Shown: piece after piece, positions 13,844-60,303 of the stretch
Position numbering within the stretch: the first letter of the stretch is position 1
Layout: each line of letters begins with the position of its first letter
NCBI GenBank assembly: GCA_951406725.2
Contig: OX597821.1
Coordinates: 46,128,001-46,192,000 of the forward strand
DNA: 64,000 nt
From: Octopus vulgaris
Taxonomy: Eukaryota
Direction: 5' to 3'
Notes under the pieces: generated by a model
Told to the model about the DNA's origin: nothing
Databases searched by the model: none
Seen by the model: the letters and a program-made list of their open reading frames with translations, nothing else
Translations under genes and position numbers: made by a program

Positions 13844-14050
13844 TTAATCCCCCCACCAAATAAAAAACGAAGGAAAAAAACACAAGCAAAAATAACAACG
13901 CGAGGGACGTGGCACATGAAAAATATTAAGAGGCTCGGGGAAGGAAAGGAAGGTTGTTTTACGTTTCGAGCAAAGCTCTTCTTCAGAAACAGGAGACAGA
14001 GGAAAGTCCAAGAGAAAAGGAAGACGGAGGAAAAACATCGCCAACAATCC
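13844..14050 (-). mobile_element. Penelope-like pseudo-LTR solo element carrying a hammerhead
   Basis: Homologous to 60095-60303; adjoins TA/TG microsatellite. Confidence 0.7.
13956..13990 (-). ncRNA. Minimal type-I hammerhead ribozyme motif
   Basis: gttt-CTGAAGA-a-gagc[ttt]gctc-GAA-acgT-A-aaac. Confidence 0.8.
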
Positions 14051-14274
14051 ACTTGTAGTTACATTTTAATTTATCTATCTAGATATCTATCTTTCCATTC
14101 GCTTCTCTCTCTCACACACACTCACTCTCTCTCTCTTTTTCTGTCTGTCTGTCTGTCTGTCTCTCTCTCTTTCTCTCTCTCTCGTTTTATCAGTTTTCAT
14201 TTGCGTCTCTCATATTTATATGAGGTACAGATTTACTTGGGAAAGCATTTATATATATATATATATATATATAT

Positions 14275-14460
14275 ATGGGAGAGTTTACGAAAAACAAACA
14301 ACAAAAGACGAAGACAGGTGGTGTACAAAACAAACAGATGTATTAGTATAACGCTCAGGAATTGAAAAAGTCTTTTACGTTTCGAGCCTACGCTCTTCTA
14401 CAGAAAGGGACACAGAAAAAAACAAGGAGAGAAAAAAATGCGTGTAGTAGCTACCGATCT
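14275..14460 (-). mobile_element. Penelope-like pseudo-LTR solo element in (TA)n; partial sister copy at 59301-59375
   Basis: Flanked by TA repeats, contains a hammerhead-like motif, and shares GGGAGAGTTTACGAAAA...TATTAGTATAACG with 59301-59375. Confidence 0.65.
14372..14407 (-). ncRNA. Hammerhead-like motif with variant core (CTGTAGA)
   Basis: cttt-CTGTAGA-a-gagc[gtag]gctc-GAA-acgT-A-aaag; stem I covaries relative to the 13956 and 60167 motifs. Confidence 0.6.
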
Positions 14461-15542
14461 ATATATATATACACACACAAACACACACATAAATGTAAAG
14501 AATGAAAGCAAAATGGAATGAGATAGGACTCTTTGAAACAACTGAGCAACGGCTAGCCGACCAGGGAAGAGCAACAAGAGCAAAAGGGTTGCTAACAGGC
14601 ATGTAAATATGAAGGAGAGACAAAAATGAAAATTGATAAATCGAGAGAGAGAGAGAGAGAGAGAGAGAGAGAGAGAGAGAGAAAGTGAAAGGGAGAGAGG
14701 GGGAGAGAGAGAAGCAGATAGAAAGATAGATAAATTAATAGAGATCTTGATAGATAGACTGTGGGGGAGAAATTAGTGAGTGACAGAGAAAGTGATAAAT
14801 AAATTGAAAGCTGTATGGGTGTGTAATTTCTAACGTTCCAGTAAACGCCAGTAAACATTGAAAACATGTTGTAGTTCAGTGAGTTCATTATTTATGATAG
14901 ATGTGTCAACAAAGTATTTAACAGCTTTCCTCTGCTCTTTTTTTATTGTTGATAACTCATTATATCTGGTTGCAGAAATACTTATTCGCTTCACTTAACA
15001 TTCGACATCATGTTGACAATGTTTCGTAAATGTCTTAATCGTTAGATTTCATCATTTGCATAAGAAGCAGTTTTGGAAAACGACTTCAGTAACATGAAAT
15101 ATTGGAATTACTTTAGGTTATTTTTGTCACTACTTAACCCTGTGTCAACCCGATGATCAGAAGCATTTAAGCCGTGATTATTTCATCTTTTTCCTATACA
15201 CAATGAACCGAGGAACACATTATCCAACAAGCCCATTTTAAAGGTAGCTGGGTATGCTCTGAGTGCAACGTGGGTGCTATTTCAGCATTTTTAACAACCA
15301 CAAAATTTACTTCACTACACCTTTGGAAAGGTATGAATGTCACAACTTCATATTCTCTCTTCCTCGCTCTCAAGTTATAGAGTCTTTGTATTTACTTAAC
15401 AGAAATAAGCGTTTTATGCCACAGCGTCGTCCATGAGCAAGCTGTTTGAGTAGAGTCGTTTTGCCAGGAAGAAGGGAGGACAAGAAGGAATATAGAACAG
15501 TGAACCAATATCTGTCCAGCAAAAACAACAATTTATTTCATA

Positions 15543-15838
15543 TCTTTATATATAAAAGTCAAGTTGTGTGTCTGTCTCCTACGATTTAGATTCCTAACTA
15601 CTCCCACATTTTGCGGTGCAGTGTAACCAAAAGCGGGTATCTTATAGTCGTGATTCATATAGAGCCCTTCTGGGTATTAGCGCGCGTCTACGATGAGTCA
15701 ACGATTAAAAAAAAATTTACCATAATTTTTTTCCCATTTTTAATGCATTTTTTTGCTATTTTTTGGCTATAACTCTCTAAAAATGCTTATATAGTTATTT
15801 CCCTTACAAACCCGAGCAACGCCGGGCGATACTGCTAG
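15543..15838 (+). mobile_element. Non-autonomous Helitron, short variant
   Basis: a^TCTTTATATATAAAAG ... hairpin + CTAG^t. Confidence 0.88.
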
Positions 15839-16524
15839 TAAGTAAATAATAATTGGCTAGGATTAACTTTTCATAAACTTCTGTCTGAATGCTGAAAGTA
15901 TTATAACATGCACATTTGGTTGTGCTTAAAACAACAACAAAAAAAAACAAAAAAAAACAAAACAAAAAACTGAATAATATAATCACTACAAGCTGAAAAT
16001 ATGGGGAACATTAATTTCTTCGTAGATCTGAAAGTTCTTCATTGTCTTTTTGATCAGTTGGAATTTCTGTAAAGTTCCACCTGAGTCGGTGTATGGAAGA
16101 GCAATTATAAGAATATGTGAGAAGGCATCTGCGGCTGAACTGTTTGTACACTTTACATAACAAATGTCGTTTGTAAACTGGGGTGAATAAAAAAAAAATC
16201 TACTTAGCTGTCGGATTTCCCGAGGCTTGTTGTCGGTGTGGATAGAGAAGTTTTACTTTCTAAAAGATAGCGCAAGTACGGCCAGGTAAACTAAAAACTC
16301 TCATCTAAATATACCATTATAGAGGATATTCCCGTTTAGAAAAGTACGATGAAGTTTGTCAGTCATCATTCACGAGTTATTGTAAGCCTGTCCCAGCATC
16401 AACCTTCAAAGCAGTCACTAGGTTTTGGACAGATAAACATAGAAGCCTAGGCTAGCTCGTCCTTCATGTTTAAAGAAGATTGCAAAGTGATATCTCGAAC
16501 GTAATAGGCTTCTCTTTTTTTTTC

Positions 16525-57519: not shown

Positions 57520-57694
57520 ACACATATGTAAATATATATATATATATATATATAATATAAATAAGAAAGAAAGATAGACAGATAGATAGGTAGATAGATA
57601 GGTAGATAGATAGATAGATAGATAGACAGATAGAGAGATAGATAGATAGATAGATAGATAGATAGATAGATAGATAGATAGATAGATAGGTAGA

Positions 57695-57790
57695 TATGTT
57701 TCTTTATTAGCCACACAGGGCTGCACACAGAAGGGACAGATTACAAAGTAGAGCTTTTCTTTTTTTTGAAGAAAAAAAAAAAAGGTGGGG
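57695..57790 (-). mobile_element. Short 3' end of the LINE-like element seen at 3915-4243
   Basis: AAAAGCTCTACTTTGTAATCTGTCCCTTCTGTGTGCAGCCCTGTGTGGCTAATAAAGAAACATA. Confidence 0.7.
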
Positions 57791-58290
57791 TAGGTTAAAG
57801 AATTATACGTATATAATGTATATACCACTAAATTTAGGATAAGTATATTTTCTTTTGAAATGTACCATGAATATAGTTTGAAGCCTTCTCATATTTTTGG
57901 TAGATTTTCTTTTCAACTTTTTTGTTTCTTGTTAACGGCTTTAAAAGTTTAAACTGTAGAGGGTAGCACTCGTGTCCCATGGAATATGATTCGTAGAATT
58001 TCTGATGTTCCTTTTCCCAATGGCTTCTTATAACCATTATCAATCAGTGCACATCTAATTACGTTTTGCGGCACTGAAAAACAGCCACTTCCATATAGTT
58101 TCCTTACTTTAGCGACCTCACGAGAGGTATTCTATGGGATGAAGCAGATATGGTTCTCCGATCAACCATGCGTGAAGACCTGACGATATCCTTAAGAAGT
58201 GAAATCCAGGGTTTGCTGCAGTGTTGTATATCATCATCATTGGGTCCTATGATCATACATAGTCATACTGGATTGCGAGTCGAAAGCCGT

Positions 58291-58738
58291 CATACATACA
58301 TACATACTTACATACATACATACATACGTACATACATACATACATACATACAAACATACATACATATATACAAACAAACATACATACATACATACATACA
58401 AACATACATACATACTTACATACATACATACATACATACGTACATACATACACACATACATACATACACACATCATGCATACATACAAACATACATACAT
58501 ATATACATACATACATACAAACATACATACATGCATACATACACATATACATACATACATACATACATACATACATACAAACATACATACATGCATACAA
58601 ACATACATACATACATACACACACATATATACATACAAACATACATACATACACACATACATACATATATACATACATACATACATGCATACATACATAC
58701 ATACACACATACATTCATACATACATACATACATACAA
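58291..58738. repeat. Imperfect (CATA)n microsatellite
   Basis: Direct observation. Confidence 0.95.
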
Positions 58739-60094
58739 ATAGATATACACTATGTATATATATATATATATATGTAAATTCATAAAAATACATATATGTG
58801 TGTAGTGTGTGCGTATTGTGTATAAATAGAGTTGTCAATATATTGCCAAATGTTGCCAAATTTAGGAAATGTGTCATTGACAAAATAGAAACTTTTGAAA
58901 CAAGTGTTTTATTGTTAATTAATGATTCCCCAATTCAGTTGATGTCCGTTCGGTTGTTTGACTATTACACTGTATGTGCGTCAGCATAGTCACAATTCAA
59001 TGAAATAGTTACGACCCAATGACTGAAACAAGTTAAAAAGTAAAAGAATATACACCCATGCGTAGAAGTTAGTTTCCCCAATCACATCTTAAGCAAGTGC
59101 CTTCTACTATAAGCCTTGTGAGTGCATTTGGTAACTGGAGACTGATAGAAGCCTGTTGTATATATATATATATATATATATATATATATATATATATATA
59201 TATATATATATATATATGTGTGTGTGTGTGTGTGTGTGTGTGTGTGTGTGTGTGCGTGTGTATACACTGACACACACAAATGTATATATATATATATATA
59301 TAGGGAGAGTTTACGAAAAAAACAAAGGACGAAGACAGGTGGTGTACAAAACAAACATATGTATTAGTATAACGTATATCTATCTATCTATCTATCTATC
59401 TATCTATCTATCTATCTATCTATCTATCTATCTATCTATCTATCTATCTATATCTATCTATATATATATGTTTAAATGCGTGTGTGTGTTCCCTATCACC
59501 GCTTGAGAAGCAGGCCGGGAAAAGAAACCGACAGAATAATTACCATGCTTTAAATAAGAAAAGAAAAGTACTGGAGCCGATTCGTCCCACTAAGATTCGT
59601 CAGGGCGGTGCCCCAGCACGACTTCAGTCCAATGATCGAAACAAATAAAAGAATACACACACACACACACACACACATAAAATTATAACAAAGGTGTTGA
59701 ATGATTACAACACCATTCTGGTGAAGTAATAATCTAAGTGGCTCCTAGACCATTTGGGGTCTATTTCTAGCAGACTGGAGTTATAATCATTCAGCACCCT
59801 TATTACAATTTTAATATAAATTAACACTTATGGTACTTTTAGTATGCTGGCTGGCCACTGAAAGATCATTACAAAAATGGCTTTATACTAATTACGCATA
59901 AATATTGTGACCATGCTGGAGAACCACCTTTAGTTGAACAAATCGACCCCAGGAATTATTCTTTGTAAGCCTAGTACTTATTCTATCGGTTCTCTTACCA
60001 AACCGCTAAGTTACGGGGCCGTAAACATACCAGCATCGGTTGTCAACCGATGGTAATGTAGGGCAAACACAGAAACAGATACACACACACACAC

Positions 60095-60303
60095 GTGACC
60101 GCGTACGTAACGTTGGCGATTTTTTTCCCCTCCGTCTTCTCTTCTCTGGATCTTTCCTTTTCCTATGTTTCTGACGAAGAGCTCCGCTCGAAACGTAAAA
60201 CCCTCCTTCTTCCCTTCCTTCCTGAGCGTCCGATAATACTATACTTGTTCCACGTCCTCGCATTGTTGTGTTTTCTCTTTGTGTTTTCATGTTTGGATTA
60301 ACT
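60095..60303 (+). mobile_element. Penelope-like pseudo-LTR solo element
   Basis: Homologous to 13844-14050; bounded by (CA)n and (TA)n. Confidence 0.7.
60167..60201 (+). ncRNA. Minimal type-I hammerhead ribozyme motif
   Basis: gttt-CTGACGA-a-gagc[tcc]gctc-GAA-acgT-A-aaac. Confidence 0.8.

Follow-up and report, generated by a model that had tools for sequence, protein, structure and literature searches.

The 64,000-nt stretch of Octopus vulgaris DNA analysed here (the window; bases 46128001-46192000 of contig C8 in a genome of 2.8 Gb and 227 contigs) contains short non-coding inserts, each of which carries a minimal hammerhead ribozyme motif. We are highly confident that these inserts are solo 3′ ends, or pseudo-long terminal repeats (pLTRs), of protein-coding Penelope-like retrotransposons (PLEs). 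Their identity rests on the observations that the same ends follow open reading frames (ORFs) encoding reverse transcriptase (RT) and a GIY-YIG endonuclease, recur as pLTRs upstream of these ORFs, terminate in (TA)n and have 5′ ends that concentrate at a preferred position. The whole explanation, in which the solo pLTRs were made by the element's own enzyme at (TA)n tracts, is assigned a probability of about 0.75. The elements are of a known kind; the additions made here are a fixed 5′ start of the solo copies and a changed ribozyme core, with U at position 6 (U6), in a young family.

Hammerhead motifs in the window

Both strands were scanned with a type I hammerhead descriptor, with 20 dinucleotide shuffles of the window as the control. 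Perfect CUGANGA/GAAA cores were found at four positions, 6667-6712(+), 60167-60201(+), 23876-23911(-) and 13955-13991(-), and in none of the 20 shuffled windows. Allowing one core mismatch added 23926-23961(+), 14372-14407(-) and a weak match at 32075-32137, compared with 0-3 such matches in each shuffled window. A sequence-only reading of this DNA had placed six motifs here, all of which the scan recovers; the stems, loops and palindromes that it described are borne out as well. The six motifs contain the CUGANGA and GAAA boxes with stems I and II (perfect in four of them), an extra A after A9, which in the 23876 type is paired as 10.1, and a palindromic minimal stem III (ACGT, ACGATCGT or ACTCNGAGT). 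Core variation, previously placed at N7, does occur there, but the 14372 motif also has U for A at position 6 and the 23926 motif has C at position 4 (C4). The relevant features are as follows.

6585-6639 (-): inverted partial copy of the 6667-type element end, lacking the last 71 nt (the tail)
6635-6893 (+): solo pLTR of family E6, Hydra-type by its sister subfamily, between (TA)n at 6528-6599 and 6895-6937
6667-6712 (+): hammerhead, perfect core, 8-nt stem III palindrome, predicted cut after 6708
13845-14067 (-): solo pLTR, Neptune-type lineage A (subfamily E13), with its 5′ end at the lineage's fixed start
13955-13991 (-): hammerhead, perfect core, ACGU stem III, predicted cut after 13960
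14278-14460 (-): solo pLTR, Neptune-type lineage B, an older relative (78% identical to the young family), ending in (TA)n at 14250-14276
14372-14407 (-): hammerhead with U at core position 6 (14400), the lineage-B norm
23833-23927 (-): inverted arm of a head-to-head Hydra-type insertion, with the perfect-core hammerhead at 23876-23911
23926-24047 (+): direct arm with the tail and the hammerhead at 23926-23961 (C at core position 4), ending in (TA)n at 24048-24168
56297-56485 (+): Hydra-type fold-back pair, missing from the sequence-only reading, which starts inside the ribozyme and lacks the 5′ core
59304-59374 (-): lineage-B 3′ end, too short to include the ribozyme
60095-60302 (+): solo pLTR, Neptune-type lineage A (E60), 208 nt, ending in (TA)n at 60303-60346
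60167-60201 (+): hammerhead, perfect core, ACGU stem III, predicted cut after 60197

The motifs had been taken to be unrelated, which does not hold. The 60167, 13956 and 14372 inserts are homologous beyond the ribozyme and align over their full length (76% identity over 179 nt for 60167 and 13956), and 23876 and 23926, on opposite strands, belong to a single head-to-head insertion as its two arms. The earlier assignment was right: these are minimal type I hammerheads like those of Penelope-like elements, densely distributed at dinucleotide repeats and able to form stem III only as dimers. No PLE ORF was detected within the window by tblastn, and none of the 43 window ORFs of at least 70 amino acids (aa) that were scanned, from 51 candidates, matched Pfam, although small exons could escape such a scan. 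An Rfam scan gave no hammerhead among the 150 of 375 matches listed; microsatellites, which are very abundant in the window, swamp it with microRNA models.

The inserts are ends of coding elements

The 60167 insert was used as a query (60090-60285) and returned 3,594 candidates, of which the best 40 were scored (94-96% identity) and 30 loci were fetched. The 3′ end is the same in all 30, and TA repeats, or rarely CA repeats, come after it. When the query was moved 33 nt upstream, copies were recovered that reach more than 1.5 kb further 5′, and two loci examined in enlarged stretches have a 1.7-kb CA-rich untranslated region (UTR) 5′ of the 60167-type end, itself preceded by the end of an ORF with RT and GIY-YIG. 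This lineage-A ORF contains YIDD, a CxxxxCxxC linker and, at the C terminus, a GIY-YIG domain. In the reverse test, made with the ORF only, the 60167-type end lies downstream on the same strand in 19 of 20 loci (the top 20 after the query itself, among the best 40 scored; L140 and L142 are near-duplicates) and also upstream in two, L149 and L153. The latter has an 816-aa open frame, with Pfam matches below the cut-off. At E ≤ 1e-30 the ORF has 363 homologs, which carry RVT_1 but no clade name. The 13956 subfamily belongs to the same lineage, with 4 of 30 loci running on into the lineage-A UTR. C occupies core position 4 in 28 of 76 family-A copies. The 3′ UTR of L150-L154 contains an internal (CAYA)n-like region of variable length (1.5-3 kb), so the element itself spreads a CA-type microsatellite. 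Another GIY-YIG PLE family (L061:1127-1618(-), L056 and L377), about 28% identical to lineage A, has no match to the hammerhead descriptor at its end.

The 14372 type leads to a second ORF, whose protein is ~61-66% identical to that of lineage A and which precedes an end that is 78% identical to the 14372 insert. This young lineage-B family (40 scored copies, ~99.6-100% identical) has the same hammerhead and the same 3′ end in TA in all 25 fetched copies; the 5′ ends are ragged and often start in TA. Eight loci were enlarged: open frames of 1177 and 1181 aa are present in two of them, and pLTRs flank both sides in four. The ORF matches Pfam RVT_1 above the cut-off. Core U6 is present in 25 of 25 copies, with N7 varying, and in 18 of 20 distinct anchored contexts; A6 occurs in none of the latter. 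In L310, L311 and L316, all of this family, the open frames span 1036-1181 aa and the C-terminal end enters a variable pyrimidine-rich tract.

The 23926 type reaches more than 2 kb upstream, to remnants of an ORF in 7 of 30 loci, including a pair of near-duplicates. A search with the Hydra-type protein gave 11,309 candidates, and four of the seven stretches fetched hold intact 727-aa ORFs with RWK, DKT and CxCx5C. Each of these four has a perfect-core hammerhead ~1 kb downstream, and two are also preceded by one. The 23926-type end lies downstream in six of the seven ORF-selected stretches. The core reads CCGACGA (C4) in 31 of 58 anchored copies. L368-L371 represent a very young family of this type, in which many 727-aa ORFs are identical and copies often form head-to-head pairs.

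The 6667 subfamily is also young (97-99% identity, 1506 candidates); its copies are frequently paired head-to-head, one arm bearing a tail of 71 nt. Its sister subfamilies keep the core and palindrome while loop II grows to ~35 nt; one is ragged at the 5′ end (7 of 40 loci fetched). The sole ORF link for the 6667 type is one locus at which a sister subfamily is contiguous with a broken Hydra-type ORF, and the family is likely, from these sequence matches, to belong to the Hydra clade. L382 (G000:C22:32849300-32857200) holds a broken Hydra-type ORF that is extremely AT-rich and has an asparagine-rich insertion; just 5′ of the ORF lies another family's hammerhead-like motif, which also occurs in L139 and L147. 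At L090:1761-1866, a 95-nt GC-rich piece is captured between the arms of a 6667-type insertion. It was rejected as part of the element, as it matches another repeat, which recurs at ~18-kb spacing within a tandem array at G000:C20:23.94-24.08 Mb.

The link to RT and GIY-YIG ORFs that the sequence-only reading had proposed to look for is therefore found for 60167, 13956, 14372 and 23876/23926, and for 6667 through its sister subfamily. The loci examined also have the hallmarks of PLEs: flanking pLTRs (L149, L153, L313-L316, L369 and L371), 5′ truncation, inverted 5′ copies and tails of 66-71 nt.

Insertion at (TA)n and density

A (TA)3 run lies within 6 nt of the 3′ end in 65 of 76 family-A copies, compared with 5.2% of random positions; for (CA)3 the values are 1 of 76 and 1.1%, which rules out (CA)n as a target. 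Of the two repeats proposed earlier as neighbours of the inserts, only (TA)n is a fixed one. The 13956 copy ends in (CA)n followed by (TA)n. Complete A and B elements have TTATATA at the junction between pLTR and 5′ UTR, and part of the flanking TA may therefore derive from the element; TA is also found 5′ of truncated copies, which argues for a pre-existing TA target. Ends of different PLE lineages often adjoin in one TA tract (L273, L083, L096, L224, L235 and window 13845-14460), as if each insertion leaves a fresh target.

Density was estimated from 800 kb, taken as 80 stretches of 10 kb at round coordinates, with four family patterns, in which as many as five mismatches were tolerated (a single one in the 6667 pattern); bystander copies were added for the end statistics. 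The sample contains 24 motifs, or ~30 per Mb, which extrapolates to ~84,000 genome-wide (54,000-125,000). The window, with seven, is ~3.6 times as dense as the sample mean.

A fixed 5′ start of solo copies

Among unselected family-A copies, 12 of 23 start 206-215 nt from the 3′ end, 11 are shorter and none is longer. The best-fitting exponential gives, as a best case, p ~4e-14. In the 23926 type, 7 of 10 starts lie at 141-150 nt and the fold-back centres lie just upstream of stem I; in lineage B, by eye, ~10 of 22 copies begin at the preferred start. Solos that start at the ribozyme cut site, for which the products would be 105, 102, 109 and 185 nt, were not seen.

Short family-A copies appear, on a weakly supported tree, to be interleaved with long ones and to lack a clade of their own. 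On this 76-row tree the short-versus-long label changes 19 times, with seven changes forced by supported branches, against 25 when shuffled, and no bootstrap tree groups the short copies together. The nearest-neighbour identity of short copies is 96.7% to other short copies and 96.5% to long, ORF-linked ones. A fixed start in copies without their own clade fits internal priming on a transcript that starts inside the pLTR. We consider it somewhat better than an even bet that the fixed start marks the start of the element RNA.

Several points weigh against this interpretation. Eleven of the 23 lineage-A ends fall short of the fixed start, and at least five of 22 lineage-B copies are long, so the stop is not absolute. 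The label is somewhat clustered, since only 2-4 of 500 shuffles gave as few as 19 changes, which can reflect how the set was picked or partly independent short lineages. The tree itself is built on 207 columns with low support and a bootstrap that has not settled. BLAST edges can mimic a boundary in a diverging subfamily, though the flanks are mostly microsatellite or unique. No homologous 5′ extension or long copy of the 6667 subfamily was present in 30 loci. The transcription-start step is one that we infer.

Proposed mechanism and alternatives

Penelope has an internal promoter within its pLTR (PMC2377424), and in the anole Poseidon element RT starts internally at the pLTR-ORF junction, with two starts that define the tail (Frangieh et al. 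2024, PMC11167929). Together these features predict solo copies that run from the RT start to the 5′ end of the transcript. In the octopus, the element's endonuclease would nick (TA)n, and the nicked strand could pair with the short run of UA where pLTR and 5′ UTR meet. Reverse transcription would then start internally, at the end of the upstream pLTR, as it does in vitro for the anole PLE, and RT would run out at the transcription start inside that pLTR, which would yield solos of fixed length. Only the first ~150-260 nt of the RNA are likely to be copied into most solos. Longer, ragged copies would result from priming at the downstream pLTR, and fold-back would give head-to-head pairs.

Alternatively, the fixed-length solos might transcribe themselves from an internal promoter and be copied in trans by PLE protein, in the manner of short interspersed nuclear elements (SINEs). 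This scheme, which we regard as unlikely, is close to the sequence-only reading of a dense and diverse population of non-autonomous retroelements. It would account for the sharp 5′ ends, for the excess of solos over ORF-linked copies in unselected DNA and for a young 6667 subfamily without a long copy; the internal PLE promoter and a report that tandem retrozymes derive from pLTRs (10.64898/2026.07.22.740005) are compatible with it. However, short copies interleave with ORF-linked ones and are almost as close to these as to one another, every lineage has coding masters with the same end, and no tandem arrays of these units were seen. Of the earlier claim, the density stands. Separate non-autonomous families do not, since loci selected by ORF carry the ends (19/20, 25/25 and 6/7) and short copies interleave with long; a non-autonomous life is possible for the 6667 subfamily and for some fixed-length short copies.

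Somewhat less probable still is that the inserts are ordinary 5′-truncated copies and that the pile-up marks a hot spot for RT stalling or template switching, unrelated to transcription. Longer copies are indeed ragged, a CA- or AT-rich low-complexity UTR lies slightly upstream and microhomology with TA flanks could favour a site. A stall should leak, however, and no unselected family-A copy extends beyond 215 nt. Moreover, each of four lineages of differing sequence has a preferred start, which reads C-A after a pyrimidine and thus weakly resembles the initiator consensus.

Ribozyme conservation and function

Across ten lineage representatives (an eleventh was too short), identity is 0.90 in the core, 0.84 in stem II and 0.78 in stem I, compared with 0.44 in loop II and 0.44-0.51 in the flanks, although the rows were anchored on GAAACGT, which inflates conservation there and weighs against the argument that follows. 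Cores no more conserved than loops had been named beforehand as evidence against ribozymes; the core and stems are instead far more alike than loops and flanks, which suggests that the master elements are under selection for the motif. Within families, private changes affect 5 of 684 core cells and 181 of 12,624 flank cells. Loose ends of contigs cluster at the ribozyme borders. Four contig sets that we guessed to be RNA had neither joints nor a pile of ends and were uninformative on expression, introns and starts.

The ribozyme would thus be kept by selection on masters and would need a partner to form stem III; in a solo copy it is probably inert. The opposite view, that solos are active ribozymes in host transcripts that cut pre-mRNA or release circles, could draw on the ~30 motifs per Mb and on 13956 and 14372, which share the ACGU palindrome and are separated by ~380 nt on the same strand, but we judge it improbable. 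No hairpin can be closed by ACGU, whose self-pairing yields only -1.7 kcal/mol (-10 and -7.8 kcal/mol for the palindromes of 8 and 9 nt), and in monomer folding the hammerhead is the lowest-energy fold of none of the six window motifs. Crossing the stems I of 13956 and 14372 gives three A-U pairs, and inverted partners lie on opposite strands. In single family-A copies, decay affects C3, G5, G8, G12 and the palindrome, and the 5′ ends do not coincide with the cut site (105 nt). In the literature, minimal PLE ribozymes are described as inactive as monomers and weak as dimers (PMC4209133; review PMC6765202), or as dependent on PLE protein. The sequence-only suggestion that host pre-mRNA is cut is without support, as no host gene was identified and monomers cannot close stem III, and that of small circular RNAs by the retrozyme route lacks a substrate, since no tandem arrays of these units were seen. 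Chance matches to a short consensus can be set aside: one-mismatch matches do occur in shuffled windows, but perfect cores number four against none in 20 shuffles, the families have thousands of members and the core is kept while loop II varies from 3 to ~35 nt.

The young lineage-B family carries a core change that is predicted to weaken cutting. A6 changes are reported to give low hammerhead activity, in the case of A6C (PMC3088659), and U4C is reported to reduce activity yet to support a viroid. In vitro, cleavage is dispensable for the anole PLE, whose ribozyme mutants still insert (PMC11167929), and the role of the hammerhead in endonuclease-bearing (EN+) PLEs has been called unclear (PMC8557442). 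A tentative and rather doubtful extension is that the tens of thousands of fixed-length solo pLTRs document, across the genome, where PLE transcription starts and where priming is internal, with some of the solos acting as self-propagating RNA polymerase II mini-elements, and that the spread of a U6 family reflects a motif kept as a structure or protein-binding signal for which cleavage is dispensable. The genome offers natural tests: it holds together young intact families of both kinds, the Hydra type with canonical cores and Neptune-type B with U6 cores, and the sharp 5′ boundary predicts transcript start sites. In annotation, these PLE ends of 150-260 nt would pass for SINEs or unknown repeats. 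Lunse et al. 2017 may already list U6 or C4 variants.

Comparison with known systems

The motif class, its location in pLTRs, single truncated copies, inversions and the microsatellite bias have all been published (PMC4209133; PMC8557442; PMC3846280). As in the PLE hammerheads of Cervera and de la Pena 2014 (PMC4209133), the octopus motifs are type I with an unpaired nucleotide between 9 and 10.1 and a palindromic minimal stem III, and occur as many variable families per genome, mostly as single copies from truncated PLEs and as opposite-strand pairs. They differ in a stem II of just 3-4 bp in three lineages, in U6 (lineage B) and frequent C4 (two lineages), which are not listed in the portion of that paper considered here, and in an estimate of tens of thousands rather than the 2,000-9,000 reported there. 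In the literature searched, a scope outside which supplements and Lunse et al. 2017 lay, no earlier account was found of these families, the U6 core or the fixed start of solos. A recent annotation of octopus repeats includes recently active PLEs, and its main text contains neither 'hammerhead' nor 'ribozyme' (PMC13282606).

Lineages A and B share with Neptune-type EN+ PLEs (PMC8557442) the motifs GxRF, DKG and YIDD, the CX2-5CxxC linker, a C-terminal GIY-YIG domain with two cysteines and two histidines, pLTR tandems and the microsatellite bias; lineage A differs in its long CA-rich 3′ UTR. We class both provisionally as Neptune-type by motifs in their translations; Nematis shares the linker. 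The 23876/23926 type agrees with the Hydra clade (PMC8557442) in RWK, DKT, the CxCX5C linker and CxxC and CxH around the E and N residues, as well as in a hammerhead in the pLTR and insertion at (TA)n; RWK, DKT, the linker and the (TA)n site were established with the 727-aa ORF of L368. Hydra-type elements are distinguished here by their great abundance, and no master was found for the 6667 subfamily. The anole Poseidon element (PMC11167929) also resembles the octopus elements in its AT-rich targets, but it belongs to another clade, and the fixed 5′ solo end is an extension made here that the consulted part of that report does not describe.

Non-LTR (long terminal repeat) retrozymes (PMC7229834; 10.64898/2026.07.22.740005) are likewise non-coding and PLE-related and carry type I hammerheads. 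They form head-to-tail tandems of ~300 nt with canonical ribozymes and circles, whereas the window inserts are solos or head-to-head pairs identical to the ends of coding elements. A retrozyme would be expected to lack a contiguous coding partner, and ORFs are contiguous with lineages A, B and the 23926 type. No head-to-tail hammerhead array was seen in the window or in the family loci examined. Elsewhere in the genome, L240:2307-4513 (G000:C1, 20.00 Mb) is a true non-LTR retrozyme, with head-to-tail units of ~359 bp in two head-to-head blocks, each unit bearing a canonical type I hammerhead with a 6-bp stem I, a 4-bp stem II and an ACCGGT stem III. Decayed relatives occur in L152.

Other features of the window

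Two near-identical 3′ ORF ends of long interspersed nuclear elements, without a Pfam match, lie at 24889-25539(-) and 55694-56179(-); we take them to be CR1-like. A restriction-like endonuclease fragment, also without a Pfam match, lies at 51527-51964(+). Tandem repeats are found at 40455-40856 (141 bp), 8021-8266 (43/128 bp) and 748-947 (101 bp).

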